Origin: a bacterium
GTDB taxonomy: Bacteria; Zhuqueibacterota; Zhuqueibacteria; Residuimicrobiales; Krinioviventaceae
Assembly (NCBI GenBank): GCA_024278645.1
Contig: JAJRST010000546.1
Coordinates: forward strand, 1 to 34,603
Direction of reading: 5' to 3'
Length of the DNA stretch: 34,603 nucleotides
In this document: in pieces, positions 2,724 to 17,984 of the stretch
How positions within the stretch are numbered: the first letter of the stretch is position 1
Layout of the letters: the number at the start of each line of letters is the position of its first letter
The notes under the pieces: model-generated
What the model saw: the letters and a program-made list of their open reading frames with translations, nothing else
Database searches by the model: none
What the model was told of the DNA's origin: nothing
Position numbers and translations under genes: made by a program

Positions 2724-2732
2724 TGAGAATAT

Positions 2733-2762
2733 AAAAAAGCCTCGCAATGCGAGGCTTTTTTT
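2733..2762. terminator. Bidirectional rho-independent terminator between convergent genes
   Basis: A6 tract, stem gcctcgc (2739-2745), loop aat, stem gcgaggc (2749-2755), then T7 (2756-2762). It reads as a terminator on both strands. Confidence 0.8.
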
Positions 2763-3948
2763 ATAAAGCGAGAATTGGAATTATTTTTTTCTGAATTTCC
2801 CCGGCGACGCCGACCTCCCCGTCATCCGTGACAAAGACATCGATTTCCGTGCGAAAGCCGATTTTTTCTTCCGGCATGTAGATGCCCGGTTCGATGGAAA
2901 AGCACGTCCCCGGCAGGACAAGTCGTTCATCCTTGGTTTCAAGATTGTCGATATGAACGCCGTTGCCGTGCACCTCTTCGCCGATGTTGTGACCGGTGCG
3001 ATGGGTGAAATACTTGCCATAGCCCGCATCAATGATGACCTGTCGACAGGCGTCATCCACCTCCCATCCGTGCACGGGAATGTTTTTCACAAAGCGTTCT
3101 CTGACAAAATCAAGAGCGGCGTCGCGTGCTCGAGCCGCGACCTGAAAGATGTTCTCCAGTTTTTCCGGGACGGTGTCGCCGACATAGCCCATCCATGTGA
3201 TGTCGTAAAAAATGCTGCCGGGACGATTCTTCTTCGCCCACAGATCCAAAAGCACAAGATCGCCTTTTTTCATCTCAAAGCTGTTCTCTTTTGTGGGTTC
3301 AAAGTGCGGGTCCGCCGCATGTTCATTAACGGCGACGATCGGCCCGTCTCCCCAGAACATGTCGTTCTCGCGCATAAGCTGGTGCATAAAGGCTTGAATC
3401 TCAAACTCGCGCGGGTTTTTACCGGCGCGGATGCGTTTTGCGATTTCCTTAAAGGTTTCATTCTTGACTATATGCATAATTTCGCCGGCCTCTTTGTGAC
3501 TCCTCAAGTCCGCATCGGTGAGGTGCGCTTCAAACTTGCCGACAAGGTCGCCGCTGGAAACCACGGCAACGCCAAAACTGCGAATCAGCTCCACAGTGCC
3601 CGCATCGACGATGGATACGTAGGGAATGGCGTTGTTGGGGGAGTATTGCATGGCGACTGTTTTGCAGGATTTTAGAATGCTTTCGAGTTTTTGCTGCTGT
3701 TCCTGCCAGGAAAGGTAGATGTGTTTGTCGCCCGGGAGATGATCGCATCGCCAGGGTTCAATGCGATGCACTAATTTTTGCGGCCGCCCGTGCGCCGGAA
3801 TGAAATAGTACCAGCGGCGGGAGGCGAAGCGCGAGGCATCCATGTGCAAGACGCGGGCGGCTATGGCATCCCGGTTATGGAAGTCATAAAATAACCAGCC
3901 ATCGATTTCAGCCCGTTGCAATTCCTGTTGAATGGCCTGCAAGTCCAT
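2761..3948 (-). CDS. M24 family metallopeptidase (Xaa-Pro aminopeptidase/dipeptidase-like)
   Basis: 395-aa ORF with HRTGHNIGEEVHG and FSIEPGIY motifs of the M24 pita-bread fold, plus a creatinase-like N-terminal domain. Confidence 0.85.
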   Translation of the reverse strand: MDLQAIQQELQRAEIDGWLFYDFHNRDAIAARVLHMDASRFASRRWYYFIPAHGRPQKLVHRIEPWRCDHLPGDKHIYLSWQEQQQKLESILKSCKTVAMQYSPNNAIPYVSIVDAGTVELIRSFGVAVVSSGDLVGKFEAHLTDADLRSHKEAGEIMHIVKNETFKEIAKRIRAGKNPREFEIQAFMHQLMRENDMFWGDGPIVAVNEHAADPHFEPTKENSFEMKKGDLVLLDLWAKKNRPGSIFYDITWMGYVGDTVPEKLENIFQVAARARDAALDFVRERFVKNIPVHGWEVDDACRQVIIDAGYGKYFTHRTGHNIGEEVHGNGVHIDNLETKDERLVLPGTCFSIEPGIYMPEEKIGFRTEIDVFVTDDGEVGVAGEIQKKIIPILAL

Positions 3949-3964
3949 TTCGTTCTCCTTAAAA

Positions 3965-4327
3965 TTAGGCGGTCGGCGAGTTCGAGCGAATAAGACGTTT
4001 CAGCATACGTTCAATATCGTCGATCTTGTCGTCCAGTTCATTGTAGTTTTTTAACAAACCCAAATCGTTTGCGAGCAGCAAGAGGTATGAAAGCTCCTGG
4101 ACGGCATTCAAGGCGCCGCGATAGTAGTAAAGCTTGGGCTTTTTGCCCCGTTTTTTAAAGCCGATGGAAATGTTGCTTGGAACGGATGCCGCAATAGTGC
4201 GGATCTGCGATGCCAGTGCATCGGTCTCTTTTTTGGAGAGCTTGGCCTTGTACAAAGCAAGAACAAGCTCGTGGCTTTTCTGCCATACGACCAGATCGTG
4301 AAATGATTCGACTTTTCTGGATATCAT
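3965..4327 (-). CDS. Four-helix-bundle protein (23S rRNA intervening-sequence protein family)
   Basis: FHDLVVWQKSHELVLALYK near the N-terminus and YLLLLANDLGLL near the C-terminus match this family. I place the start at the internal ATG 4327 (MISRKVESF...), giving the ~120 aa typical of the family. The 47 upstream codons of the track ORF look non-coding. Confidence 0.7.
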   Translation of the reverse strand: MISRKVESFHDLVVWQKSHELVLALYKAKLSKKETDALASQIRTIAASVPSNISIGFKKRGKKPKLYYYRGALNAVQELSYLLLLANDLGLLKNYNELDDKIDDIERMLKRLIRSNSPTA

Positions 4328-4550
4328 TGTGGATCGCCTTTCTCTGTTAGGTTTTAGGCTCGAGGGTTTCGTCGTGGATAATGGTAACATAAAAACGACG
4401 GATAGCGTAGCGATTATTTCGAAAAATCTGATTTTATTTAAAGTATTCATTTTGTTCAGGAAAAACAAATACTTTAAAAATTTTGGTAATTTGGCGGATA
4501 TTGCTTAAATTGAACATAATTTTGGTGAACCCGGATTCTGTGAGGAAAAA

Positions 4551-5534
4551 ATGACTCGATACAAGGTTGGCATCATTGGCGTCGGAAAGCTGGGCGCCTT
4601 TCATTGCAATGCGATAACGCAACTGGATAATGCCGAGCTGGTCGGCATCTTTGATGTTGATAAAGCCAGGGAAAAGGAAATGGCCGAAAAATTTCATTGT
4701 ACGCCATTTGCCGCGGAAGCTGATTTGTTTGATGCCGTCGACGTCGTCGGCGTCATCGTGCCGACGAGCGCGCATCTTGAGGTTGTCAAAAAGGCGCTTG
4801 TCGCCGGCAAACCGGTCTTTGTTGAAAAGCCGATCGCCGCAACCGTTGCCGAGGCGAAGGAAATCGTTTCTTTGGCGCAGGCGAGGAACCTGCCCGTTCA
4901 AGTCGGTCACATCGAACGTTTTAACCCGGCCATTCGTGCTCTGAATGCTTTTGAACTTGCGCCGATGTTTATCGAGTCGCACCGCCTGGCGCCGTTTGAT
5001 CCACGCGGAACGGACGTCGCCGTCGTTTTGGATTTGATGATTCATGATATCGACATCATCTTAAATCTGGTCAAGTCGCCGGTGAAAAGCATCCATGCGA
5101 ATGGCGTGGCCATAGTTTCGGACGAGGTTGACATTGCCAATGCGCGCATCGAGTTTGACAACGGCTGCGTCGCCAATGTCACCGCCAGCCGTATTTCGCA
5201 GCGCAAAATGAGAAAGATGCGTCTTTTCCAAAAAGACGCCTATGTGTCCATAGACTTTCTTCTTCGTTTGACCGAGCTTTTTCGTTTATCCGATGAAAGC
5301 AGAGAGAGCAACGTCGCCATAAATTTGGGACAAATAGACAAGGGGAAATACAGGAGAAACATCCTTTACGAAAAACCCCCGGTTCCGGAAGGGGATGCCA
5401 TGCAGACGGAATGGCAGAGCTTTTTTCATGCCATTGAAACCGGTGAACCGCCGATAATCAGCGCCCTCGATGGCTTGAGAGCGTTGGAGGTGGCGCTGCA
5501 AATCCGATCCAGGATCAATGAATCCATACACTAA
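4551..5534 (+). CDS. Gfo/Idh/MocA family NAD(P)-dependent oxidoreductase, possibly a GnnA-like UDP-GlcNAc 3-dehydrogenase
   Basis: N-terminal Rossmann motif KVGIIGVGKLGAFH, EKP motif (VFVEKPIA), GAGG RBS 5 nt upstream. It lies immediately upstream of lpxB. Confidence 0.8.
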   Translation: MTRYKVGIIGVGKLGAFHCNAITQLDNAELVGIFDVDKAREKEMAEKFHCTPFAAEADLFDAVDVVGVIVPTSAHLEVVKKALVAGKPVFVEKPIAATVAEAKEIVSLAQARNLPVQVGHIERFNPAIRALNAFELAPMFIESHRLAPFDPRGTDVAVVLDLMIHDIDIILNLVKSPVKSIHANGVAIVSDEVDIANARIEFDNGCVANVTASRISQRKMRKMRLFQKDAYVSIDFLLRLTELFRLSDESRESNVAINLGQIDKGKYRRNILYEKPPVPEGDAMQTEWQSFFHAIETGEPPIISALDGLRALEVALQIRSRINESIH

Positions 5535-5551
5535 TCATCGGGCCTGATTCT

Positions 5552-6679
5552 ATGTCAAAGAAAATAATGATAATCGCCGGCGAGGCCTCCGGCGACCTGC
5601 ACGGCGGCAAACTGGTGACGTCGCTGTTGCAGCAACAGCCGGACGCGGAAATTTTCGGCGTCGGCGGCGACAACATGAAAAAGGCGGGGATGGAATTGCT
5701 GTTTCATGTCGAGGACCTGGCTTTCATGGGGTTTACCGAAGTGATCAAGCATCTCGGCGATATCAAAAAAGTTTTTAATTCACTCATCCGGGAGGCGCAA
5801 GCTCGCAAGCCGGATATCATTGTGCTCATCGACTATCCCGGCTTTAATTTACGTTTCGGTAAAAAGGCAAAATCCCTTGGTTTTCGCATTTTTTATTTTA
5901 TAGCGCCGCAAGTTTGGGCATGGCATCAAAGTCGCGCAAAAAAAATGGCCTCCTTTATCGACCGCATGGCCGTACTATTTGATTTTGAAGTCGACTTTTT
6001 CAAGAGATACGGCATAGATGCTCGTTTTGTCGGCCATCCTCTGCTGGACGGGTTGCAGTTAAAATTATCCGAGACCGGGTTTCGCCGCACGTTTTCATTG
6101 CCGGTCGATGCGCCGCTGCTGGGATTGTTTCCGGGAAGCCGCAACCAGGAGATCGATCAGCTTTTACCGACCATGTTGCAAACGGCGCGTCGGTTGCGCG
6201 AGAAACATGCGCAAATTGTCGTCGCCGTAAGTCAGGCTGATACCATCAGCGACGCCCAAATTGGCGACCACCTTGCCGGATACGAAAATATCGCCGTTAT
6301 CAAAGGCGCGGCTTACGAGTTGATGAATTATTCCCGATCGGCTATGGTGGCTTCGGGCACGGCCACGCTGGAGACGGCCTGTTTTCAGACGCCGTTCGTC
6401 ATTATTTACAAAGTGTCCTCGTTTTCCTATTTTATCGGCAAACGCGTGGTCAAAATTCCTTTCATTGGTCTTGCCAATATTGTCGCCGGCAGGCAAGTTG
6501 TCCAAGAGTTCATTCAAGAAAATGCCTCCCCGGAAAATATTCTTGCGGAAATGGAGAAATGTCTTTTTGACGACGAATACCGCCGACAAAAAAAAGAAGA
6601 TTTGTTGCGAATCAAGCAAAAGCTTGGCGCTCCGGGGGCTTCGGAACAAACGGCGAAACTTGTGCTTGAAATGATTTAA
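5552..6679 (+). CDS. lpxB: Lipid-A-disaccharide synthase
   Basis: IMIIAGEASGDLHGGKLV N-terminus, YFIAPQVWAWHQSR and LFPGSRNQEI motifs characteristic of LpxB. 375 aa. Confidence 0.92.
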   Translation: MSKKIMIIAGEASGDLHGGKLVTSLLQQQPDAEIFGVGGDNMKKAGMELLFHVEDLAFMGFTEVIKHLGDIKKVFNSLIREAQARKPDIIVLIDYPGFNLRFGKKAKSLGFRIFYFIAPQVWAWHQSRAKKMASFIDRMAVLFDFEVDFFKRYGIDARFVGHPLLDGLQLKLSETGFRRTFSLPVDAPLLGLFPGSRNQEIDQLLPTMLQTARRLREKHAQIVVAVSQADTISDAQIGDHLAGYENIAVIKGAAYELMNYSRSAMVASGTATLETACFQTPFVIIYKVSSFSYFIGKRVVKIPFIGLANIVAGRQVVQEFIQENASPENILAEMEKCLFDDEYRRQKKEDLLRIKQKLGAPGASEQTAKLVLEMI

Positions 6680-6695
6680 TTGTTACAACTGATTT

Positions 6696-7361
6696 GTGAT
6701 AATGAATAAAAAAAGAAAAAAAGAAATTCTGCAATATATAGCCATCAAACTGTCGTGGCTGCTCATCCTTGCTTTTGGAAAATTGGCAAGGATAACCGTG
6801 AAAAATCAAAAGCACCATAAAACAGCGCTAAACAGTGGGCATCCCGTTTTGTACATTACCTGGCATGGTAAAATGTTGGCCCCCATTTATGTCATGCGCA
6901 ATTCCAAGATCGTCGCCATGGTCAGCGAGCACGGCGATGGAGAGATCATCGCACAAACGATTCTCAGACTCGGCTACAAGACGGTTCGTGGATCGAGCAC
7001 GCGCGGCGGTCAAAGGGCTTTTCGCGAAATGCTGAAGCTGTTAAAAAACGGGCGTCATTGCACAGTCCTGCCCGATGGTCCGAATGGGCCCCGTTTTGTT
7101 ATGAAGATGGGAGCGATACTTCTCGCTCAGAGATCCGGGGGCTATTTGTTGCCGCTCACTTTTTCCGCCGAGAAGCCAATTGAAATGAATTCCTGGGACA
7201 GGTTTACGCTATGGCGACCGTTCTCGCGAGTGTCGGTCTTGTACGGCAAGCCGATTCTTATTCCACGCAAGTTGAGTCCGGCGCAACTGGAGTACTATCG
7301 AAAGTTTGTCGAGCAGAAAATGCATGACTTGCAGCGAGAGGCGGATGAGTTTTTTGGATAA
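6696..7361 (+). CDS. DUF374 domain protein (lysophospholipid-acyltransferase-like, commonly linked to lpxB/lpxK/waaA)
   Basis: ITWHGKML...SEHGDGEIIA...GSSTRGG...VLPDGPNGPRF resembles DUF374. The track start is GTG 6696; ATG 6702 is an equally good start. The 3' end overlaps lpxK by 17 nt. Confidence 0.75.
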   Translation: MIMNKKRKKEILQYIAIKLSWLLILAFGKLARITVKNQKHHKTALNSGHPVLYITWHGKMLAPIYVMRNSKIVAMVSEHGDGEIIAQTILRLGYKTVRGSSTRGGQRAFREMLKLLKNGRHCTVLPDGPNGPRFVMKMGAILLAQRSGGYLLPLTFSAEKPIEMNSWDRFTLWRPFSRVSVLYGKPILIPRKLSPAQLEYYRKFVEQKMHDLQREADEFFG

Positions 7362-8361
7362 TAAATGGCCGGCCATTCTTTTATGGCCCCTATCCGTCTT
7401 GTACGGTTTTGCTATACGTGTACGAAATTTTTGCTATGACAAGGGTTTGTGTAAAAGCTACACTGTCGACTGCAAAGTGATAAGCGTGGGCAATGTAACC
7501 GTCGGTGGAACCGGAAAGACGCCGACAGTACAATATCTCTTTGAAAAACTGTCGTCGCTTGGCAAACGAGTCGCCATCTTAAGCCGCGGATATGGAAGGA
7601 CGACAAAGGGCGGCGTGCTTGTCTCGGACGGCGAAAAAATATGGTGCACTGCAAGAGAGGCCGGCGATGCACCCTTTCTGTTGGCTTTGTCGTGTTTCGG
7701 CGCTATTGTTGCTGTGGACGAGGATCGCATTCGAATGGCCCGCAAGATCGTCGCAAAGTATTCTCCGGATGTCATTATTCTGGACGATGCATTTCAACAT
7801 CGGAGAATACGGCGGGACCTTGATATTGTGATGATCCGCAGCGGCAAGCCGTTTGGCAACGGTTTTTTGCTGCCGGCGGGTCCGTTGCGAGAACCGTTGC
7901 AAAGTTTGCGACGATCGCATTTGATCCTTGCCAGCGGCAAAGATGATTCCGTTAAAAAGATAACGGCAAAAGAGAGGATTCCAGTCGTCAATTTTCATTA
8001 TAAAGTTCGGGATATTCGGAATAAGCACGGTTACGTTTCAGCGACCGAGTTGTCTGGAAAAGATATCATTGCCTTTTGCGGCATCGCCAATCCGACAAGT
8101 TTTTTGCAAACGCTGGCTAATTTTCATGTGAACATTTTAGACTTTGCAACGTTTCAAGACCATCATCGATACACAGAAAAAGATTTAATGCAGCTTCGTT
8201 TCCGCTCCCAACGCTTGGCATCAAACTATATCATTACAACTGAAAAAGATTGGGTAAAGCTCCCACAGGATGAGCTTGATGATGCGTGGTTGTATGTGCG
8301 CATCGGCATTATCCCGGAAGAGGAACAAGTCATAGTGTCTCGTTTTGAGATGGTTTTTTAA
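7345..8361 (+). CDS. lpxK: Tetraacyldisaccharide 4'-kinase
   Basis: P-loop VGNVTVGGTGKTP, ILSRGYG, and N-terminal WPAILLWPLSVLYG typical of LpxK. I prefer ATG 7345 (MSFLDNKW...) over the track start at 7306 because it gives the family-typical N-terminus. Confidence 0.9.
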   Translation: MSFLDNKWPAILLWPLSVLYGFAIRVRNFCYDKGLCKSYTVDCKVISVGNVTVGGTGKTPTVQYLFEKLSSLGKRVAILSRGYGRTTKGGVLVSDGEKIWCTAREAGDAPFLLALSCFGAIVAVDEDRIRMARKIVAKYSPDVIILDDAFQHRRIRRDLDIVMIRSGKPFGNGFLLPAGPLREPLQSLRRSHLILASGKDDSVKKITAKERIPVVNFHYKVRDIRNKHGYVSATELSGKDIIAFCGIANPTSFLQTLANFHVNILDFATFQDHHRYTEKDLMQLRFRSQRLASNYIITTEKDWVKLPQDELDDAWLYVRIGIIPEEEQVIVSRFEMVF

Positions 8362-8390
8362 AAAGTGTATCAAGATTATACAAAAAACAC

Positions 8391-8419
8391 TTGCGTTATA
8401 TGGTTCAATTTCTTATAAT
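8391..8419 (+). promoter_or_regulatory. Candidate sigma70-type promoter for the sigma54 activator gene
   Basis: TTGCGT (8391-8396), 17-nt spacer, TATAAT (8414-8419), about 30 nt upstream of the ORF start. Confidence 0.5.
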
Positions 8420-8445
8420 GTAGATGCTAACATACAGTTGGTTAA

Positions 8446-9846
8446 TTGGAGATGTTTATTGTGGAAGAAAAAAGAAGACCAAAAATATTGATTGTCGATG
8501 ACGACAAGAATATTTGCAAGATGATTGAGGCAAGTCTTCGAAAAGAGAGAAAGTACGATATAAATACAGCGTTGAGCGGCGAAGCGTGTTTAAAGATTAT
8601 TAAAGAAGAGTTGCCGGATCTTTGCCTGGTTGACATCCAAATGCCGGGCATCGATGGCATCGAAACCCTGAAGCGAATCAAGGAAGAAGATCCTCGCGTG
8701 CCGGTGATCATGATGACAGCGCACGGCACCATCGAGCGCGCGGTGAACTCGATGAAACTCGGCGCCTACGACTTGTTGACAAAGCCGTTCGCGCGCGACC
8801 GCTTGCTGGTTACTGTTCAAAACGCCCTGATCAACAGCTCACTGCAAAGAGAAGTAAGCGAACTGCGTTCAGAGTTGAAAAGCAAATACACTTTTTCGAA
8901 TATTGTCGGTCAAAGCGGCATCATGCAGGATGTCTTTCGGTCGGTAGAAAAAGTTATGGACAGCAATGTAACCGTTTTGATTCAGGGCGAGAGCGGCACC
9001 GGCAAAGAGCTTATTGCGCGGGCGATACACTACCATTCTAAAACGAGAGCGAACAAACCATTTGTCGCCGTCAATTGTTCCGCGTTGCCTGAATCTTTGC
9101 TCGAGAGCGAGCTCTTTGGTCACGAGAAAGGTTCTTTTACGGGCGCCGCGGGACGTCGAATCGGCAAGTTTGAACAGGCCAATGGCGGCACTATTTTTCT
9201 CGATGAGATCGGCTTGATGACGCCGGCAACGCAATCCAAAATTCTGCGCATTCTGCAGGAGCGCGAATTTGAACGAGTCGGCGGCAATGAATTAATAAAG
9301 GTCAATGTTCGCGTCATTTCCGCCACCAATAAAGATCTGGAAGAAGAAATGAAAAACGGAACTTTTCGCGAAGACTTGTTTTATCGCATTTCTGTTTTTC
9401 CGATTAAATTACCGGCCCTTCGTGAGCGCAAGGAAGACATTCCTCTCCTCGCAGCTCATTTCCTGAAAAAATATAATGAACAAGAAGGAAAAGAGGTTGA
9501 CGGCATCTCTTCGGATGCACTGGACCTTTTAATGGCTTATAATTGGCCCGGCAATGTCCGCGAACTTGAGAATGCCATGGAACGCGCCGTTGTGCTTGCC
9601 AACAGCTACGAAATCACAGCCAAAGAGCTGCCGCCTGCTGTCCGCTCACTGGGTGAAAAACGAATATACGAATCCGACAACACGCTGGCTAGTTGGATTG
9701 AAAAGTTAGAAGAGCAGGCGCTGCGTCAAGCATTGCTCGAATGCGAAGGAAATATCTCCAAAACCGCAAAACAGTTAGGCATCGGCAGGGCGACCATCTA
9801 TCGCAAGGCAAAAAAATACGGGCTTCCGATGGTCAAGACGAGTTGA
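8446..9846 (+). CDS. Sigma54-dependent Fis-family response regulator (NtrC class: REC + AAA+ + HTH_8)
   Basis: Canonical receiver (ILIVDDD, LVDIQMPGIDG, MMTAHG, TKPF). Walker A GESGTGKE. Sigma54-contact loop ESELFGHEKGSFTGA. Walker B IFLDEIG. C-terminal ISKTAKQLGIGRATIYRKAKKYG. The start is uncertain (TTG 8446, ATG 8452 or GTG 8461). Confidence 0.93.
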   Translation: MEMFIVEEKRRPKILIVDDDKNICKMIEASLRKERKYDINTALSGEACLKIIKEELPDLCLVDIQMPGIDGIETLKRIKEEDPRVPVIMMTAHGTIERAVNSMKLGAYDLLTKPFARDRLLVTVQNALINSSLQREVSELRSELKSKYTFSNIVGQSGIMQDVFRSVEKVMDSNVTVLIQGESGTGKELIARAIHYHSKTRANKPFVAVNCSALPESLLESELFGHEKGSFTGAAGRRIGKFEQANGGTIFLDEIGLMTPATQSKILRILQEREFERVGGNELIKVNVRVISATNKDLEEEMKNGTFREDLFYRISVFPIKLPALRERKEDIPLLAAHFLKKYNEQEGKEVDGISSDALDLLMAYNWPGNVRELENAMERAVVLANSYEITAKELPPAVRSLGEKRIYESDNTLASWIEKLEEQALRQALLECEGNISKTAKQLGIGRATIYRKAKKYGLPMVKTS

Positions 9847-9872
9847 TTTTCACTTCACGTTTTGTGGTTTAT

Positions 9873-9911
9873 GGGCGAATCCCTTCTTAAGGGTTCGCCC
9901 ATTTTTGTTTT
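9873..9911 (+). terminator. Rho-independent terminator after the activator gene
   Basis: Stem gggcgaa(t)ccc / gggttcgccc with one bulged base, 7-nt loop, followed by atttttgtttt. Confidence 0.6.
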
Positions 9912-9954
9912 AGTGTGATACACTGTTTCGCTTGTACACAGCCCTTGTGTTACA
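9912..9954. promoter_or_regulatory. Candidate upstream activator sites (inverted repeats)
   Basis: AGTGT-gat-ACACT (9912-9924) and the imperfect inverted repeat TGTACACA-gccct-TGTGTTACA (9933-9954). Their centres lie about 105 and 80 nt upstream of the -24 GG, the usual distance for enhancer-binding-protein sites. Confidence 0.25.
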
Positions 9955-10021
9955 ATCCTCCGAATGAGCTTCATTTACCCCCTGTTTTTAAAGATTTACA
10001 GCGTAACAACATGCTAAAAAG

Positions 10022-10036
10022 TGGTATGTAATTTGC
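10022..10036 (+). promoter_or_regulatory. Candidate sigma54 (-24/-12) promoter
   Basis: TGGTATGTAATTTGC versus consensus TGGCACG-N4-TTGC. GG and GC are separated by exactly 10 nt, and only two defined positions differ. It lies directly downstream of a sigma54 activator gene and about 135 nt upstream of the next long ORF. Confidence 0.55.
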
Positions 10037-10105
10037 TTAAAACAGTTCATCAGAAATGCATCGTTTTCTGCCAAGTGTGTGGGCGCCATTTCTGAGAACC
10101 CGCAG

Positions 10106-10168
10106 ATGGATGCTATCTGTAACGAGTGTGGCAGAGTTTCTAATGTGAAGTGCGGGGAATGCGGATAG
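10106..10168 (+). CDS. Possible 20-aa zinc-ribbon-like leader peptide (MDAICNECGRVSNVKCGECG)
   Basis: ATG..TAG mini-ORF with a CxxCG-x6-CxxCG pattern. It is in the same frame as the downstream 369-aa ORF and separated from it by only TAG plus one codon. No clear RBS. Confidence 0.2.
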   Translation: MDAICNECGRVSNVKCGECG

Positions 10169-10171
10169 CAA

Positions 10172-11281
10172 GTGACTCAAATGAAGTTGGGAACAATGGA
10201 GAAAACAAGTTTAGCTCAGTTGGTACGCGATATTTGTGCAGGCGATTATTCCCAGGCACAATTGGTTGAATTCATTAATTTGACTCAGAAAATCTCTCTC
10301 GGATATCTCAAATACCAGGAAATTATTGGTAAGCGAATATCCGGCGAGCGGGTTGATACAACACTAGAGTTGCAAGACCTTGCGGTTGATTGTATTGCAG
10401 AGCTGTTCAGCGGCGATGGAAATGGCAACTTCCCGCAGCTTAAAAAGTATTATGAACCCAAATATGAAGAAACTCAAAATATTGACGACGCCGAGGTTCT
10501 TATTTTAACTCGCCGGTTGGTGGTGCGCAAGACAAAGCAGGAGCTGTCACGAATTTTCCGGGAACGCGATCCGGAGGGCGCCAAAATTGTTCGCAACATA
10601 AAGGTCGCTATTCGGACATCCGAAAAGCTTGCCATGTTCGCTGACTTGGGTAAAGAATATGTTTTTTATAAAAATGGCCTCGAATTAAATCCGAATGAAC
10701 CTGTCGACGTCGATTTGATCGCCGGCTATTTGCGCAGAAAGAACCCCCCCATTCCTGAAGACCTGCTGCACACACGTTTTATTGACATTTATAATCCTTC
10801 CGATTCTGTTTCGAGTTCCATCCGAAAATTGCTGAGGACCGTTCACGATTTTAACGACTATCAGAACTTTCTGCCGATAGAAGTGATCGTAAAATTAATA
10901 CGACGAGTGAAATTCAATGCCGTTAAAGAAAAACTTGCCGCCGATGATTCCGTTCCCACTCCTCTTGATGTGCTGGAAGTCAAAGAGATCGAGAGCTATA
11001 TAGATGTGGTGATGGAAAAAGTCGAAAGAAAAATAAACACACAGTACCTTCGTTCCAATAAACTGGATTATCAACGCGCAGAGATTTATGCCAAAGCTCT
11101 GAGAGATGTTTTAAACGACCTCATCCAAAAAAAGGACAATTCATCGTACTTTAGGAATCTTCGATTCTACTTGCCTGAACTTACGCAGAGAGAATACCGA
11201 CAGAATGAAAGATCGGTGTTCGAATATCTTGCCAAAGTTGCCAAAAGAGAGTTTCGGAAACATTTAAAAGAATTGCTTTAA
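10172..11281 (+). CDS. Hypothetical protein; divergent sigma70/ECF-like factor with a long insertion between region-2-like and region-4-like segments (tentative)
   Basis: The N-terminus LAQLVRDICAGDYSQAQLVEFINLTQKISLGYLKY...LQDLAVDCIAELF...LILTRRLVVRKTKQELSRIF follows the ECF region 2 pattern (L..LV...GD..A...L......Y......D.AQD...E.F......IARN...D..R). The C-terminus LPELTQREYR...YLAKVAKREFRKHLKELL resembles region 4. Start is GTG 10172, or ATG 10181/10196. Coding status is solid; the function is inferred. Confidence 0.55.
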   Translation: MTQMKLGTMEKTSLAQLVRDICAGDYSQAQLVEFINLTQKISLGYLKYQEIIGKRISGERVDTTLELQDLAVDCIAELFSGDGNGNFPQLKKYYEPKYEETQNIDDAEVLILTRRLVVRKTKQELSRIFRERDPEGAKIVRNIKVAIRTSEKLAMFADLGKEYVFYKNGLELNPNEPVDVDLIAGYLRRKNPPIPEDLLHTRFIDIYNPSDSVSSSIRKLLRTVHDFNDYQNFLPIEVIVKLIRRVKFNAVKEKLAADDSVPTPLDVLEVKEIESYIDVVMEKVERKINTQYLRSNKLDYQRAEIYAKALRDVLNDLIQKKDNSSYFRNLRFYLPELTQREYRQNERSVFEYLAKVAKREFRKHLKELL

Positions 11282-11384: not shown

Positions 11385-12056
11385 ATGAAAAAACAAGAAA
11401 CGACCTTCAAAGGTAGTTGTGAGCACAGCAACCTAACGGAATTGCTGTATCTGGGCCAACTTGAAAATGAAGAGGAAAAAAAGCTCGCCCAACTTCATTT
11501 ACAACAGTGCCCTGTTTGCAAGAGGACATTTTCAGAACTTGAGCAACAATATCGATTTATAGAAAAAGAGATTCAAAAACCGGTCACAAATAAAACATTG
11601 GATCTGGCGAAGGAGGTAGGCTCAAAGGATACAAAGTATGGGCTTTTGATTTGTGAACCGGTCGAATCGGCAAAGACGAACAAAAAGGCGGCGCCTTACA
11701 AAGCCAAAGTCCTTTTTACCGCCAATGGCGCCGGAAATACAAAGAATAAAAAACTGGCCGATTTTAATCTAAAGTCTCTACCTGAAGACAGCATTGCTAT
11801 TCGGGCTATGACCGACAAAAAGTGTAATAAACTGTTGTTGTATCTTTGGAGTCCTCAAAATGAAGACTTTGACGGTTGGGAGCTTAAAATTTCGGGAGAG
11901 GCAAAGGCAGTTTTTAATCTGTCAGGCATGTCTCAGATTCCCCTGATGGAAATTGAAGATCTGAATGGAAAAGTGATCTATTTCAAAGAAAGGCAAACGG
12001 CATTCGCATCCGGAAATAGATTTACAAATATAAAGAGTTCAATCACGACTCTGTAA
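11385..12056 (+). CDS. Anti-sigma-factor-like protein with zf-HC2 motif, apparently soluble
   Basis: CEHSNLTELLYLGQLENEEEKKLAQLHLQQCPVCKRTF carries H-x3-C-x2-C (HLQQCPVC) plus an upstream Cys/His pair, as in ZAS-type anti-sigma N-terminal domains. No hydrophobic transmembrane segment is visible in the 223 aa. Confidence 0.6.
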   Translation: MKKQETTFKGSCEHSNLTELLYLGQLENEEEKKLAQLHLQQCPVCKRTFSELEQQYRFIEKEIQKPVTNKTLDLAKEVGSKDTKYGLLICEPVESAKTNKKAAPYKAKVLFTANGAGNTKNKKLADFNLKSLPEDSIAIRAMTDKKCNKLLLYLWSPQNEDFDGWELKISGEAKAVFNLSGMSQIPLMEIEDLNGKVIYFKERQTAFASGNRFTNIKSSITTL

Positions 12057-12072: not shown

Positions 12073-12103
12073 AAAAGCCGGATGCATATCCGGCTTTTTT
12101 TTT
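12073..12103 (+). terminator. Strong rho-independent terminator
   Basis: aaaa-gccgga-tgcata-tccggc followed by T9 (12095-12103). The A-tract/T-tract extends the stem. Confidence 0.85.
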
Positions 12104-12181
12104 GATAAATAGCTTGCTTTGGTTTCCAATTTTAGATACATTTTTTCATAAGATATTGGAAAAATATATACTTGGCCATCT

Positions 12182-13954
12182 ATGAACGAGCGCAGCATAC
12201 TTATCGTCGACAGCGACCAAAAGAACCTCATGGTTATGGAAGCAAATTTCCGGGAGGCCTCATTCGTTACGGCAACTGCAAAAAGTGACAATGAAGCTTT
12301 GAGGATCCTTAAAGACGATTCGTTCAACATAGTGCTGTGCGCCCTAAGCGCCCCTAATATTGATGGTTACCAGGTGCTCAAGGAAATTCAGCGAAATCCG
12401 GCAAAAGAGGGGCCGCATGTTATTTTTCTCTCAATTAAAAGCGATATTTGGAATCGAGTCAAAAGCCTGAAGCTAGGGGCGAAGGACTATATTGTCAAGC
12501 CGGTCCACGCAAGCGAAGTTTTGGCCAGGGTCAATATGGTTATCAGGCGGTTGCAGCGAGAGGGGGAAAGGCAAACGTCCGTGAACAACCAAATCAGTGG
12601 ACGTCTGGAAGACCTTGCCGTGATCGACTTGATTGAAATTTTTGGAGCAGAGAAAAAAACGGGTATTTTAACCATTAATAATGAAAACGGTCATAGTGGG
12701 CAAATCGTATTCAACCGGGGGCAGGTTATTAGCACCAACACACAAGCACTGCGATCTGAAGAAGCTGTATATAAAATGATGCATTGGAATCGCGGACGGT
12801 TTTCCATGCTGTTCACGGATGTGCATGTGGAAGATGAATTTACAATAAGCAATATGGGGCTTTTATTGCAAGGAGCCAAAAGGATGGACCTTAGAAATGA
12901 ACTATTGAAACAACTTCCTTCGCTCGAGGCTGTAGTCATCACTACTTCAAATTTTAAAAAAATAACATCTCAGAAAGAGATGAACAGCGAACTCAAGGAG
13001 TTTTTGACTCTCTTTGATGGCGAGAGAACGCTAGGTCGAATTCTTGACGATAGTCATGAAAATGAGATTGTGACATTGAAGAGAATGGTAAAATTATATA
13101 AATTGGGCTTCCTGCATGTCCTTCGAAATTTTTCCAAAGAACGCCCCTTGCAATTCCGATCCGAGCAAGAGGAAGAACATCCGCAATATGTTCCTTTTGA
13201 CGTCTCCGGGGATTTCGAAGATGAGCTAGAGGAAGACGAATCCGCCTCGGAGAGCGATGAACTTCAATCTCGACCGCTTTCGGACTCCGGGGCCGGCGAT
13301 TTCGATTTAAACGACGAGGAAACCTTTCTTGCATCCGACGAGCAAGATGCTTTTAAAAAGAGTCCCCAACCCCGGGAGGATGCTGACGCGGCCGGCCATC
13401 GAGAGGAGCAAAGCGTTACAGACCGATCCGGCGCCGGCAAGAATCTCATTGTGATAAGCACAAAGCCAAAACATCTCAAGCTTTTTATTGAAAACCTGGC
13501 TTCTGATGTTGAAAAAACCGACGTCAAACCGAATGCGGCAAACATATACTTGGGGGCCGTAAAGTTGCGAGGCGGCGCCAGCGTTAATGTACTCGGTATG
13601 ACCCCGGATGAGGCGGTGACGGATATGATGCTCCATTTTTCCAAACTTACCCTTGGTTGTATGTTGCTCATCGACAGCGCCTCGGCGAATTGGAACTATC
13701 ACAGGTATCTCTACAAAACATTGCGCAAGAAACTGAATGTGCCTATTCTCATTGTTTGCATCGATGGCGAGCATGAGATAGATTTGCAATCCAAAAAAAT
13801 ACGCGACCAGATGGAAATTGATAAAGATACGCCCGTGCGCTTTATTTCCGCAATTGATCCCAACAGCGTACGTCGCGTGCTTTTCACTTTGCTGAATGCT
13901 TCTGCAAATGAAAAGATGCCTGAACCCCAAAGAGAAAGCTTTGCGACAAAGTGA
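12182..13954 (+). CDS. Pseudo-receiver (REC) - DUF4388/PATAN - acidic linker - degenerate Ras/MglA-like GTPase-fold fusion protein
   Basis: REC is aa 5-125, with Ala54 (GCC 12341-12343) where CheY has Asp57 (IVLCALSAPNIDG vs FVISDWNMPNMDG); the conserved Lys (IVKPV) is present. The DUF4388 signature is LEDLAVIDLIEIFGAEKKTGILTINNENGHSGQIVFNRGQVI...EEAVYKMMHWNRGRFSM. An Asp/Glu-rich linker spans aa ~326-415. The C-terminal ~155 aa have GTPase-like strand/loop order but no GxxxxGK[ST] (LIVISTKPKHLKLF). Confidence 0.75.
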   Translation: MNERSILIVDSDQKNLMVMEANFREASFVTATAKSDNEALRILKDDSFNIVLCALSAPNIDGYQVLKEIQRNPAKEGPHVIFLSIKSDIWNRVKSLKLGAKDYIVKPVHASEVLARVNMVIRRLQREGERQTSVNNQISGRLEDLAVIDLIEIFGAEKKTGILTINNENGHSGQIVFNRGQVISTNTQALRSEEAVYKMMHWNRGRFSMLFTDVHVEDEFTISNMGLLLQGAKRMDLRNELLKQLPSLEAVVITTSNFKKITSQKEMNSELKEFLTLFDGERTLGRILDDSHENEIVTLKRMVKLYKLGFLHVLRNFSKERPLQFRSEQEEEHPQYVPFDVSGDFEDELEEDESASESDELQSRPLSDSGAGDFDLNDEETFLASDEQDAFKKSPQPREDADAAGHREEQSVTDRSGAGKNLIVISTKPKHLKLFIENLASDVEKTDVKPNAANIYLGAVKLRGGASVNVLGMTPDEAVTDMMLHFSKLTLGCMLLIDSASANWNYHRYLYKTLRKKLNVPILIVCIDGEHEIDLQSKKIRDQMEIDKDTPVRFISAIDPNSVRRVLFTLLNASANEKMPEPQRESFATK

Positions 13955-15156
13955 GCTACCAGACTTCATTTCACATATTGGTTTTGGACAAGCTTTCTGT
14001 AGAAGTTGAGCGACTGTTGCAACTCTTAAAAGACAGCGGTTACAAGGTCACCCATACTGCGGATTCCCAGGAGGCGTTGCGGCTTTGCCTGGCAAGCGCC
14101 CCGGACTTGATCATTGTCAATATTGATGAAAGAGACAGGGAAAACATTGATTTTTTTCGACAAGCCAAGAGTCATTTTTCCACGCGCTCGACGCCGATTA
14201 TCATAACAACCGAAGCTGCTGACCATCGCAAGCGGGTCGAGTACATTGAGATGGGGGCGGACGATTTGGTGTTAAAGCCTTATTATCCTGAAGAGGTTGT
14301 CGCCAGAGTGGGCAACATTTTTCAAGACTATAAAAGCCCTCTTATTTCAAAAACTGTCGAGCGCGGCTTTGTGGGCAATCTTGGTGAAATGGACCTGATC
14401 GACCTGATTCAAACGATGGAGCTTGGCGGGAAGTCGGGGGTTATTCATCTCAATCGAGGCGATAAGGAAGGCCAGGTTTATATTTATAAAGGCAAAATCG
14501 TCGACGCGGTTGTCGAAGATTATAATTCAGTCGAGCGGGCTTTTCTGCACATGCTTACGTGGATTAACGGGACTTTTTATGTGATTTTCCAAGATGTGGC
14601 GGTCAACAAGCCGTTGACGGACAATAACCAGGAATTATTCGACGAGGCGACAAAAATTATAGATCAATGGCGAAAGGTGACCGGAGATCTGCCATCGCTT
14701 CATACGCAACTTGTTGCCGTGAGCGACAAACCGGCTCATTCGTTGGACTACCAGGAAAAGCAGATGCTCGCTGCTTTTAAGGAACCGCGCACAATTTTGC
14801 AGGCGATTGATCACAGCGAATATGACGACATTGCCGGCTTGAAGATCATAAAATCCTTGTTGGAAATGGGCTTGTTGATCGAACAGGAAGTTTCATACAG
14901 CGAAGAAAAAAATAAAGCCAGTTTGTCGCATTTAAACGGGCTTGGGCCGCGCCGATTCAAAAACAAATATTCGCATATTTTTGCCATTTTTCAAAGAAAT
15001 AAAAAGGGCCGGGACGAATTGACGCCGCCTCGCACCTCTGTCGCCGGCGCTGCTGCTGAAATGCAGCAGATTGTCGCGCCGAAAAATAAAATTCATAATC
15101 GCATTCGCCTGACAAAGGCAGAACTGTTATTGATTCGTCAGAAACTTGGCGCCTGA
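13951..15156 (+). CDS. REC-like - DUF4388/PATAN domain protein (paralogue of the N-terminal two-thirds of the preceding gene)
   Basis: The GTG start overlaps the upstream stop (GTGA). The receiver-like N-terminus keeps T and K (IIITTEA, LVLKPY), but the acceptor region reads LIIVNIDERD (Asn57, with Asp two residues later). DUF4388 signature: LGEMDLIDLIQTMELGGKSGVIHLNRGDKEGQVYIYKGKIVDA...ERAFLHMLTWINGTFYV. Confidence 0.75.
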   Translation: MSYQTSFHILVLDKLSVEVERLLQLLKDSGYKVTHTADSQEALRLCLASAPDLIIVNIDERDRENIDFFRQAKSHFSTRSTPIIITTEAADHRKRVEYIEMGADDLVLKPYYPEEVVARVGNIFQDYKSPLISKTVERGFVGNLGEMDLIDLIQTMELGGKSGVIHLNRGDKEGQVYIYKGKIVDAVVEDYNSVERAFLHMLTWINGTFYVIFQDVAVNKPLTDNNQELFDEATKIIDQWRKVTGDLPSLHTQLVAVSDKPAHSLDYQEKQMLAAFKEPRTILQAIDHSEYDDIAGLKIIKSLLEMGLLIEQEVSYSEEKNKASLSHLNGLGPRRFKNKYSHIFAIFQRNKKGRDELTPPRTSVAGAAAEMQQIVAPKNKIHNRIRLTKAELLLIRQKLGA

Positions 15157-15157
15157 A

Positions 15158-15670
15158 ATGTCGTTTTTAAGCATACAAAAAGATACACATCGTATCGGCG
15201 AGTTTATCGTCGCCGGCCCCTCGTTGACATTGCAGAAGAGGTTTATTACGCATCTGTGTAATGAAGTTATCATCACCAATAACAACACGGTGTTTGGCAG
15301 AAGCAAGGTGACCGACGAATTGCAACTGTTTTTTTACGGCATTGGCGAAAAGGAGCAATATGTTGATTTTGCGTGGGACCTCCTGGCGCCGAAAATGCTC
15401 GGCTATATTCTGGTTTTCAACTGGTATGATGGCAACGAATTTTCAAGCGCTCAACAGTTGCTGGACGAGTTGTCGTCGCAAATCGATTGCCACGGCATTG
15501 TGGTCGGGGATGTCTCCGAAATGTCCCTGCCCATTGACCCGAAAATTTACGAACAGGGTTTTTCTTTCTCCCCCAAACTTTATTTTACGCTTTGGGATTC
15601 AACAATAAAATCGGATGCAAAAAATGTATTGAAAATTCTGGTGGATTCGTTAATCAACCATTTTGAGTAA
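15158..15670 (+). CDS. Small GTPase-fold-like protein with degenerate nucleotide-binding motifs (tentative)
   Basis: ATG 15158 lies 1 nt after the upstream stop. EFIVAGPSLTLQKRFI sits where MglA-type GTPases have KIVYYGPGLSGKTT. LFFYGIGEKEQ corresponds to DxxGQ, GYILVFNWYD to the G..FV.DS strand, and IVVGDVSE to NKxD. Similar in layout to the C-terminal module of the 590-aa protein. Confidence 0.5.
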   Translation: MSFLSIQKDTHRIGEFIVAGPSLTLQKRFITHLCNEVIITNNNTVFGRSKVTDELQLFFYGIGEKEQYVDFAWDLLAPKMLGYILVFNWYDGNEFSSAQQLLDELSSQIDCHGIVVGDVSEMSLPIDPKIYEQGFSFSPKLYFTLWDSTIKSDAKNVLKILVDSLINHFE

Positions 15671-15672
15671 AG

Positions 15673-16068
15673 ATGATAGAAAGCTATTCAAATACAAGCG
15701 TCGCCGTTCACCCCGGCGTCCAGTTGCAGTTTTTACGCTACCTGCTGATGGGCTTGTCTCCGAACCCGTTAATTGAAAATATGGAGGCGGTCGAGTTGGC
15801 GGCGGTTTATGATTATATCTGGGAAAAGGCGCTGGAAATAGGCATTCGCGTCAAGGGCGATCGTTTTTCGCAAACCGATATGTTGAAAAGGCTGAAATCG
15901 GTTGAACAGTATAAAATGGAAGTTGACTGCACCGAACCGGGGCAGCGATGTATATCCGAAGAGTGCCTCCTTAAAGAGGCCGCTTGCGTTAAAACAAGGT
16001 TAAAGGAACAATTTAACCGACTTTATAATATGGTTTCGGAATACTTGGGCATTGAATTTAAAGCATAA
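15673..16068 (+). CDS. Hypothetical 131-aa protein, likely helical, with a C-x6-C-x4-C-x6-C cluster
   Basis: The start is 2 nt after the upstream stop, which suggests translational coupling. Cys cluster: CTEPGQRCISEECLLKEAAC. I recognise no family. Confidence 0.5.
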   Translation: MIESYSNTSVAVHPGVQLQFLRYLLMGLSPNPLIENMEAVELAAVYDYIWEKALEIGIRVKGDRFSQTDMLKRLKSVEQYKMEVDCTEPGQRCISEECLLKEAACVKTRLKEQFNRLYNMVSEYLGIEFKA

Positions 16069-16078
16069 AATAATTTTC

Positions 16079-17026
16079 ATGCTGCAACGCCGCCCCGGCA
16101 TTGAATTGTTTGTACTGTTTCTTGTCGCTTGTAATCTTATGTTCTCTTCTTCTCTTCTTTCCCAGAAAAATGAAAACCTTACAATGGAACGGGGTTCCTT
16201 CCTTATTCATTTTGCGGCGTCGGACAGCGCTTATGCCAGACAGGCCGGCGACATTCTCGCCAAGGCCTATGAAGAAATCTCTTTCGATCTTGACATTCAA
16301 ACGGATGAAACGTTCAACGTTTATATTATGCCGACCCGCCGCAGCTTTTTGGACGCCCTGGAAGGGAAATTGCCAAAATGGACCGGCGCATTCGCCGTTC
16401 CGTCGCAGCAGCTTATGGTTATAAAATCGCCAAGATGGGACAGAAGCGAGAATTACCGACATACGCTTGTGCACGAGTTGCTGCACCTGCTTGTCCACAA
16501 TTATCTTGGCGTGCGCGATTTGCCTCGTTGGCTCGATGAAGGGATGGCGATTTTCTATTCCGGCGAGGATCGCTGGAAGACGGATGTCGCCGTATCAAAG
16601 GCGCTGGCCACCGGCTCCGTCATTCCCCTGTCCGAAGTGGATGATGTTTTAAAGTATCATAGAGCCAAAGCGGATTTGGCCTACCAACAAAGCTTCTCCG
16701 CCGTGTTTTATTTGTTGACCACTTATGACATCGAGGCCTTGCGGGAGATTATTTACAGCCTCAAAGAGGGCCTCGGCATTGATGAAGCATTTCGCCGGGC
16801 AACGGGAAGCAGTTTCAATGACTTTGAGGAAGAGTGGCGCAACTATATAAGGAGGACGCACAAATGGTTGTGGCTCTATGAAATTGATAATTATGTATGG
16901 GTTTTTATTCTGGCGCTCACTGTGTTTGCCTTTATTCTCCGTCATTTTCACAACAAACGGGTCGAACGCAACTGGCGGAATGATGATCTTTTTGAGCCGT
17001 TGCAGGACGAACCGGATGATCCGTAA
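16079..17026 (+). CDS. Membrane-anchored peptidase MA (HEXXH) family metalloprotease
   Basis: HELLH at 16472-16486, followed by PRWLDEGMAIFYSGE (Peptidase_MA_2-like third ligand region). N-terminal signal/anchor IELFVLFLVACNLMF. C-terminal TM helix YVWVFILALTVFAFIL, then an acidic tail. ATG 16079 avoids overlap; the track start at 16052 is also possible. Confidence 0.7.
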   Translation: MLQRRPGIELFVLFLVACNLMFSSSLLSQKNENLTMERGSFLIHFAASDSAYARQAGDILAKAYEEISFDLDIQTDETFNVYIMPTRRSFLDALEGKLPKWTGAFAVPSQQLMVIKSPRWDRSENYRHTLVHELLHLLVHNYLGVRDLPRWLDEGMAIFYSGEDRWKTDVAVSKALATGSVIPLSEVDDVLKYHRAKADLAYQQSFSAVFYLLTTYDIEALREIIYSLKEGLGIDEAFRRATGSSFNDFEEEWRNYIRRTHKWLWLYEIDNYVWVFILALTVFAFILRHFHNKRVERNWRNDDLFEPLQDEPDDP

Positions 17027-17067
17027 TCTTTTGTTGTGAATTACTGTGTGAATACTTAAATTCAGCA

Positions 17068-17982
17068 ATGAATACCTGGAAGGACAAATTAGAATATAAA
17101 GCGCTTCTTGCTGTTGTCAGAATCGTTCATTCCTTATCGCCCCAGGATGCCGTCAAACTCGGGCGGCGCCTCGGCGACTTTGCCCACTATTTCATTCCCA
17201 TTCGAAAATCGGTGGTTTATGAAAATCTGGCAAATGCCCTGCCTGAAAAATCGTCCAAAGAAAGAAAAAGAATAGCCCGCTTGACGTTTCAGAGTTTCGG
17301 ACAAACATTTATCGAATTTTTACGAAACCCTGTGCGTTCGAGAGAAGAGACGCTCGAACGAGTTGTTTTTCATAACAAGGCGTTGTTGCAGGAGGCGTAC
17401 AATGCCGGCAATGGCGTTTTGTTGATGAGCGGTCATTTTGGCAGTTGGGAGATGATGGCCTGCGCCGTGACCGCTTTGGGATACCCGCTTGTGGTCATTG
17501 CGCGGCCGCAGCGCAACCGGCTGGTCGATGCCCTGATCAATCAATATCGTCAGGCGGCGGGGATTGAAACCGTATCGCTCGGCATGGGCGTGCGCGCCTT
17601 TTTGCGGGCGTTGAGGCAGAATAAATTTGTCGCCATCCTCGCGGATCAGGATGCGCATCGTGAAGGCGTTTTTGTCGACTTTATTGGCTTGCCCTCGTCC
17701 ACCGCTCCCGGGCCGGCCGTATTCGCATTGAAGACCGGAGCTGATATCGTCTTTGTCACCTCCGTCCTTCGGCGTGATGGAAAATATGACGCCTATTTCG
17801 AAAAGATCGAAAGCAAGGATTTGTACGGCGTCACGGATGAAAATATTCGCATCATCACCCAAAGACATGCCAAAAAACTGGAAGAGAAAATACGTCGCTG
17901 GCCGCACCACTGGTTCTGGATGCACAGAAGGTGGAAGACGACCCAGAGAGACGGGCGACGAGTCAATAAAGAGGAAGAATAA
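17068..17982 (+). CDS. Lipid A biosynthesis late acyltransferase (LpxL/LpxM/HtrB family)
   Basis: LLMSGHFGSWEM (the H-x4-D/E catalytic motif of this family), ILADQD, and the C-terminal WPHHWFWMHRRWK typical of Lip_A_acyltrans. Confidence 0.8.
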   Translation: MNTWKDKLEYKALLAVVRIVHSLSPQDAVKLGRRLGDFAHYFIPIRKSVVYENLANALPEKSSKERKRIARLTFQSFGQTFIEFLRNPVRSREETLERVVFHNKALLQEAYNAGNGVLLMSGHFGSWEMMACAVTALGYPLVVIARPQRNRLVDALINQYRQAAGIETVSLGMGVRAFLRALRQNKFVAILADQDAHREGVFVDFIGLPSSTAPGPAVFALKTGADIVFVTSVLRRDGKYDAYFEKIESKDLYGVTDENIRIITQRHAKKLEEKIRRWPHHWFWMHRRWKTTQRDGRRVNKEEE

Positions 17983-17984
17983 AA

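Follow-up and report, generated by a model that had tools for sequence, protein, structure and literature searches.

The window, by which we mean the whole analysed stretch of 34,603 nucleotides, belongs to a MAG of an uncultured bacterium (3.28 Mb in 647 contigs, 74% complete), and the locus described here follows lpxK on its forward strand. A gene for an NtrC-type response regulator and sigma-54 activator (8461-9846) is succeeded by an intergenic region and then by two further genes, target gene 1 (361 aa, 10196-11281; the conserved start is ATG 10196, within an open reading frame that opens at GTG 10172 and has 369 codons) and, co-conserved downstream of it, target gene 2 (223 aa, 11385-12056), whose product contains an H-x3-C-x2-C motif (HLQQCPVC). 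Ahead of target gene 1 come, in order, a terminator, a pair of tandem dyads at about -124, an IHF-like element at about -57 and a -24/-12 element, and terminators bracket the unit. The upstream one, the intrinsic terminator of the activator gene (9871-9910, forward strand), has a 12-bp stem with 7 G-C pairs followed by TTTTGTTTT, a T-run that overlaps the first enhancer half-site; a hairpin and T-run are found after the activator gene in most relatives. The downstream one (12073-12108, forward strand), with an 11-bp stem followed by TTTTTTGAT, closes the two-gene unit.

The activator is composed of a receiver, an AAA+ domain and a Fis-type helix-turn-helix, with Pfam matches to Response_reg (1e-32), Sigma54_activat (2e-72) and HTH_8 (1e-11) as well as to AAA_lid_14. 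The key residues of the receiver are readable (DDD, the Asp in LVDIQMPG, Thr and Lys), and the AAA+ domain has the Walker A sequence GESGTGKE and the loop GSFTGA, which is GAFTGA with Ala changed to Ser at position 2. The protein fits the usual definition of an NtrC-class enhancer-binding protein, which calls for a receiver with a phospho-acceptor Asp, an AAA+ domain with Walker A/B and a GAFTGA loop, and a C-terminal Fis-type helix-turn-helix. It falls below every NCBIfam equivalog cut-off, those for NtrC, AtoC, ZraR and PrsR included, and is therefore no orthologue of any named regulator. The open reading frame opens at TTG 8446, and the conservation of GGAGA-N8-GTGGAA in relatives makes GTG 8461, which stands behind a Shine-Dalgarno-like GGAGA, the likely start. 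Judging from these signals, this lineage of the FCB superphylum appears to use Shine-Dalgarno sequences and TTGnnn/TATAAT-type promoters.

A preliminary description of this DNA had placed a near-consensus sigma-54 promoter directly 3' of a sigma-54 activator gene, and both points proved correct: the activator gene ends at 9846, and TGGTATGTAATTTGC (10022-10036, forward strand) is an exact match, with GG (10023-10024) and GC (10035-10036) 10 nt apart and TTGC at -12. Taking as a sigma-54 promoter a GG and a GC exactly 10 nt apart within TGGCACG-N4-TTGCW, we found that TGGTATGTAATTTGCT matches TGG[CT]A[CT]G-N4-TTGC[AT] at all specified positions. On both strands of the 3.28-Mb draft genome the latter pattern has 6 sites, the one in the window included, against ~0.8 expected from base counts; two of them, C356:86 and C427:56, lie at contig ends and are identical in site and flanks, probably through assembly overlap or as a repeat, so that the six strict sites may amount to five distinct loci. 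The pairing of an activator gene with a strict-consensus sigma-54 site behind it recurs in at least one other place in the genome, on C356. When sites were ranked by a weighted consensus score, 4 of the 6 top-scoring ones (67%) lay in non-ORF DNA, compared with 38% of the next class and ~4% of the low-scoring GG-N10-GC sites, with "ORF" meaning stop-to-stop frames 120 or more codons long, which cover 92% of the genome. This enrichment of high-scoring sites outside ORFs indicates that the score detects real promoters in this organism. The cognate sigma factor, whose gene had been singled out as something to look for, is also encoded: a 477-aa open reading frame that looks intact matches PF04552 with 209 bits, and both the RpoN box (ARRTVAKYRE) and a region I rich in Gln and Leu can be read in it.

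We considered whether TGGTAT... might instead be part of an extended -10 sigma-70 promoter (TGnTATAAT-like), with the dyads serving as operator or activator sites of a classical regulator. The distant clade, which reads TGGTATAAT or TGGTATATA, does offer a good extended -10 at this place, but the sequences of the middle clades, TGGTACACG or TGGTACATG, make poor -10 hexamers, and the invariant GG and TTGC exactly 10 nt apart are not something that an extended -10 requires. A simple scan of the spacer (9847-10172) returned no sigma-70-like match of a -35 plus a -10, and an activator site ~100 nt upstream combined with an IHF-like element is the layout of a sigma-54 promoter. We regard the extended -10 explanation as very unlikely.

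Conservation of the element was assessed in 55 loci fetched from species-representative genomes of KSB1/Calditrichota, 52 of which had enough upstream DNA. TGGTAY-N5-TTTGC sits 41-220 nt before the orthologue of target gene 1 at 49 of the 52, with TTGA replacing TTGC at -12 in two of those 49, and is absent from the three most distant loci among the 52 (31-38% target identity). It is kept down to 41% target identity although the flanking sequence diverges. The gene order lpxK, activator, promoter, target 1 is maintained across KSB1/Calditrichota; in most loci an activator orthologue, 77-92% identical, lies directly upstream of the promoter and target, and downstream of these tblastn detects a homologue of the 223-aa protein (21-59% identity), the relatives compared being non-independent samples. 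On one contig, DAOOPF010000047.1 (L047/L062; G038:C47), the activator-promoter-target module occurs twice in inverted orientation, ~10 kb apart (1874-8956 and 12657-19739, reversed), and the two copies have identical promoter and leader sequences. Motifs in intergenic DNA may also be conserved for a reason other than initiation, as recombination or replication signals or as part of a non-coding RNA gene. The fixed order of terminator, dyads, IHF-like element, -24/-12 and gene, the orientation always towards the downstream gene and the resemblance of the element to the other sigma-54-type sites of the genome speak against such a role, which no observation favours directly and to which we attach hardly any weight.

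Upstream of the -24/-12 element lie two 17-bp dyads, neither of which has a strand of its own: dyad A, TGTTTT-AGTGT-GATACA (9906-9922), in which the outer TGT and the inner GAnACA are conserved, and dyad B, TGTTTC-GCTTG-TACACA (9924-9940), which is conserved in the alignment of the loci. The two are separated by one base and meet in a central palindrome, GATACAcTGTTTC (9917-9929), made up of their inner halves. With the loci aligned on the promoter, the general form of the unit is TGTnnC-N5-GAnACA and then TGTnTC-N5-nnCACA, two abutting 17-bp dyads, and this tandem arrangement has been kept in 46 non-redundant loci, 34 with a one-base joint and 12 with a two-base joint. Loci of the near and middle clades place the joint, which is the centre of the palindrome, 99.5-103.5 nt from the -24 GG; those of the main distant clade (targets 41-47% identical) combine a two-base joint with a distance of 112-113 nt, longer by about one helical turn. 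The dyads display the properties expected of upstream activator sites, lying within ~80-150 nt upstream and being conserved and helically phased. The core GA.ACA.TGT.TC has just two occurrences in the whole genome to which the window belongs. Of 41 relatives, 23 contain the exact composite GANACANTGTNTC-N86-102-TGGYAY-N5-TTGC, once per genome, and the reversed control has none; all matches are at this locus, save that two genomes of a single genus each carry an additional one.

The preliminary description had drawn attention to two inverted repeats in this region, at a distance usual for the binding of enhancer-binding proteins. Both repeats are present and the enhancer was correctly placed, but the repeats are mis-registered and are not the conserved units. 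The first, AGTGTgatACACT (AGTGT-gat-ACACT, 9912-9924), has its left arm in the variable N5 spacer of dyad A, and this arm reads AGCGT, AGGGT, AGGAC or AGTCT in relatives. In the second, TGTACACA-N5-TGTGTTACA (9933-9954), the left arm TGTACACA overlaps the conserved outer half-site TACACA (9935-9940), and the right arm TGTGTTACA is retained in the nearest genus only.

Between the dyads and the promoter, on the forward strand, is the IHF-like element TTTTAAAGATTTA (9986-9998), which agrees with 7 of the 9 specified positions of WATCAANNNNTTR and lies at about -57 from the predicted start. The stretch that best fits the IHF consensus is 30-32 nt upstream of the TGG, on the same strand, in nearly every near- or middle-clade locus (AAACAAnnnnTTA). 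The scores themselves are modest (7.7 versus 6.9 in shuffles, with 7/9 positions in the window and up to 9/9 in relatives) and barely exceed those of shuffled sequence, so that what counts as evidence is the constancy of the position. One gene of the HU/IHF family was found in the genome.

An rpoN that looks intact, the domain content of the activator, the conserved element, the phased enhancer and the unique composite together uphold the core of the cascade that had been proposed, from activator through sigma-54 promoter to gene pair. We put at roughly 85% the probability that 9906-10036 holds a sigma-54 promoter of the enhancer-dependent type, from which the adjacent NtrC-type regulator would drive the downstream gene pair.

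The identity of the protein that would occupy the dyads calls for separate consideration. This draft genome, 3.28 Mb and 74% complete, has at least 28 Sigma54_activat genes, at least 27 of them besides the adjacent one, which for a genome of 3.3 Mb is an unusually large repertoire. With such a number of candidates, and with a second full copy of the enhancer elsewhere in the genome (C3:4603-4637), the sigma-54 promoter could be real and the dyads bound by another activator or by an unrelated dimeric protein, the adjacent regulator having its targets elsewhere. We think this unlikely, since the activator gene, 77-92% identical among relatives, adjoins the enhancer-promoter in most loci, since similar dyads precede the activator's own promoter, and since a composite site is found essentially once in a genome. 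We infer that the dyads are an enhancer bound by the adjacent response regulator; because at least 27 other activators are encoded, this assignment is one of context only, made through synteny, co-conservation and motif sharing.

The second enhancer copy reads TGTGTA-AATGC-GAGACA-G-TGTCTC-GCTGT-GATACA and is situated in a 1-kb intergenic region of contig C3. No sigma-54 element was found at the canonical ~100 nt from it; the sole candidate is the sigma-54-like TGGTTTGATCTTTGCA (C3:4853-4868), 225 nt downstream of the dyads and ~440 nt before the gene for a 1235-aa secreted protein with a signal peptide. The C3 site is a possible second member of the regulon. In the one genus with extra composites, these are located at L088 3208-3326 on the minus strand (G034:C146) and at G036:C24:19039-19156, and they precede a gene for an activator-like protein of 437 aa, whose receiver is weak and AAA+ domain degenerate but whose HTH_8 is good; after this gene come SLBB-type and Wzz-type polysaccharide-export genes. 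The adjacency to lpxK at the main locus and the enhancer ahead of polysaccharide-export genes suggest an envelope-related regulon, a hint that the circuit may report on, or remodel, the cell envelope.

Dyads of the same kind also occur at the promoter of the activator gene itself. This promoter, read from the sequence as TTGCGT (8391-8396), a 17-nt spacer and TATAAT (8414-8419) on the forward strand, is sigma-70-like and is kept as CTTG(C/A)...TAnAAT in 32 non-redundant loci; it was missed by the simple scan because its -35 matches at only 3 of 6 positions. The proximal dyad, TGTATC-AAGAT-TATACA (8366-8382, no strand), has half-sites and an N5 spacing like those of the enhancer dyads and ends 8 nt before the -35, running into a conserved A-tract (ACAAAAAA). 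Loci of both the near and the middle clades retain the corresponding pattern, nTGTnTCA-N5-(A/G)A(T/G)ACAA, before the activator gene. A distal dyad, TGTCTC-N5-GAGATG (8336-8352, no strand), lies inside the 3' end of lpxK, and TGTCTC-N4/5-TGAGA recurs at this position in the nearest relatives; because it overlaps coding sequence, it is the weaker autoregulatory candidate. An AAGTGT/ACACTT repeat (8363-8368 and 8387-8392) had earlier been noted here with the remark that it might be coincidence. Its arms exist but are not conserved, and the suggestion of coincidence does not hold for the region as such, where the conserved enhancer-type dyad at 8366-8382 lies between them. The enhancer-type dyads at the activator's sigma-70-like promoter suggest autoregulation, and the regulator probably controls its own gene through them, positively or negatively, the dyad at 8366-8382 foremost.

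What the promoter would express is a lineage-specific pair of proteins. Orthologues of target gene 1 occur in 38 of the 41 related genomes, and the 332 homologues collected, mostly 361 aa long, are all annotated as "hypothetical", none of them with a Pfam domain. The protein is confined to KSB1/Calditrichota and is highly conserved, the segment RRLVVRKTKQELSRIFRERDPEGAKIVRNIKVA being almost invariant. An AlphaFold (AF2) model is mostly helical (pLDDT 83.7, pTM 0.43). The pair had been labelled sigma-like and anti-sigma-like, a label for which Pfam, NCBIfam, PDB sequence searches, hhalign and Foldseek gave no support. Searches with 29 members of the target 1 family yielded neither a Sigma70_r2 or r4 match nor any other match in Pfam or NCBIfam, PDB sequence searches were negative or non-significant, and hhalign against nine ECF sigmas of the same genome gave a probability of 2.8%. 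Foldseek against the PDB returned nothing significant (best E-value 0.3), with sigma-70/sigma-S chains recurring among the weak matches. Target 2, though it contains HLQQCPVC, matched neither zf-HC2 nor any other Pfam or NCBIfam family significantly, and its neighbour is not demonstrably a sigma gene, as that of a ZAS anti-sigma factor would be. Because the results of Pfam, hhalign and Foldseek are non-significant, "sigma-like/anti-sigma-like" is an unverified label. Target 1 does not qualify as an ECF sigma factor, for which region 2 and region 4 domains would be expected.

Transcription is predicted to start near 10048, from the usual spacing to the -12 element, which would give the mRNA a 5' leader of ~148 nt (10048-10195, forward strand). 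This leader contains a candidate H-type pseudoknot formed by two interleaved helices, helix a (CCCGCA, 10099-10104, with TGCGGG, 10151-10156) and helix b (GCTATCT, 10112-10118, with GGATAGC, 10163-10169). Both helices are found in 14 loci, the window and 13 others from several KSB1 genera, with compensatory changes. Helix a, with the consensus CCCGYA/TRCGGG, appears as CCCGCA/TGCGGG, CCCGCG/CGCGGG, CCCGTA/TACGGG and ACCGCA/TGCGGT, and helix b, with the consensus GCYRTC/GAYRGC, as GCTATC/GATAGC, GCTGTC/GACAGC, GCCGTC/GACGGC and GCCATC/GATGGC. In an alignment with the variable loop excised, 90.7% of cells pair versus ~35% with the partners slid, both sides have changed in five of the pairs and the covariation score is reached by no shuffle, figures that come from sequences and anchors chosen by motif and from hand-anchored helices, a selection that favours the structure. 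Anchoring by hand and excision of the loop were used because MAFFT mis-aligned the 3' halves of whole leader cores. The minimum free energy of the window's leader is no better than that of shuffles (z = 0.07), and a generic search for interleaved helix pairs did not separate the leaders from shuffles. A covariance model trained on the five leaders closest to that of the window recovered those five only and did not reach other genera, and Rfam covariance models run over 9800-10300 at E <= 10 produced chance matches only. Many loci have short leaders without the pseudoknot structure. A mini-ORF within the leader (ATG 10106 to TAG 10168, 20 codons) encodes the Cys-rich MDAICNECGRVSNVKCGECG (CxxC...CxxC). 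We rejected it as a coding sequence; in the nearest relatives the equivalent stretch lacks the Cys pattern or contains stops, and the conservation is therefore at the level of RNA pairing rather than of the peptide. We offer only tentatively, and with more doubt than confidence, the idea that this pseudoknot, previously undescribed, adds a second, post-transcriptional gate to a lineage-specific regulator in the lipid A locus, working as a riboswitch or by binding a protein.

We propose the following sequence of events at the locus. A kinase encoded outside the window would phosphorylate the receiver aspartate of the response regulator (8461-9846), and the phosphorylated regulator would bind the dyads at 9906-9922 and 9924-9940, where its AAA+ ring would assemble. 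A bend at the A/T-rich IHF-like element (9986-9998) might then loop the DNA and bring the ring to the closed RpoN-holoenzyme on TGGTAT-N5-TTTGC (10022-10036), and ATP hydrolysis would open the promoter for a start near 10048. The transcript would comprise the structured leader of 148 nt, the 361-aa gene and the 223-aa gene and would end at the terminator at 12073-12108. The regulator would probably also bind the similar dyads just upstream of its own sigma-70-like -35 (8336-8382), which would amount to autoregulation.

In the library that was searched no publication links KSB1 with sigma-54, and the genome papers on Caldithrix and Zhuqueibacterota make no mention of sigma factors or two-component systems. 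The locus provides a concrete and testable circuit, in which a kinase would act on an NtrC-type regulator and this in turn, through a tandem-dyad enhancer and a sigma-54 promoter, on a strictly conserved, lineage-specific protein pair, in a candidate phylum that has no cultured or genetically studied members. The site TGTnTC-N5-GAnACA and the consensus TGGTAY-N5-TTTGC can be used to annotate the regulon in other MAGs. The mechanism itself is the standard one of enhancer-dependent promoters and of a known kind, and will therefore come as no surprise to the specialist; it is the lineage that is unstudied.

The closest parallels are found in well-known systems. The two-gene unit, whose second protein has an H-x3-C-x2-C motif, resembles the pairs of ECF sigma factors and ZAS anti-sigma factors, but the first protein is here roughly twice as large as an ECF sigma. 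Klebsiella nifH-type promoters combine a NifA upstream activator sequence, TGT-N10-ACA, with an IHF site and a -24/-12 element, and the present locus likewise has a TGT...ACA dyad enhancer ~100-130 nt upstream, a candidate IHF-type site in between, a GG-N10-GC promoter and an activator that is an AAA+ protein with a Fis-type helix-turn-helix. It differs from nifH in that the dyad is TGT-N11-ACA (17 bp) and present in two abutting copies, in that the activator is a response regulator controlled by phosphorylation rather than the GAF-domain NifA, and in that the target is a lineage-specific protein pair and not nitrogenase. In the enteric glnAp2/glnL system, NtrC binds tandem 17-bp dyads, TGCACC-N5-GGTGCA, and autoregulates through sites at a sigma-70 promoter. 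As at glnAp2, we find an NtrC-class regulator and a two-site enhancer of 17-bp dyads with an N5 core, whereas the half-site is TGTnTC instead of TGCACC, and the dyads abut, with their centres 18-19 bp apart, where those of glnAp2 are separated by about three helical turns. As at glnL, similar sites are also found at the sigma-70 promoter of the regulator's own operon.
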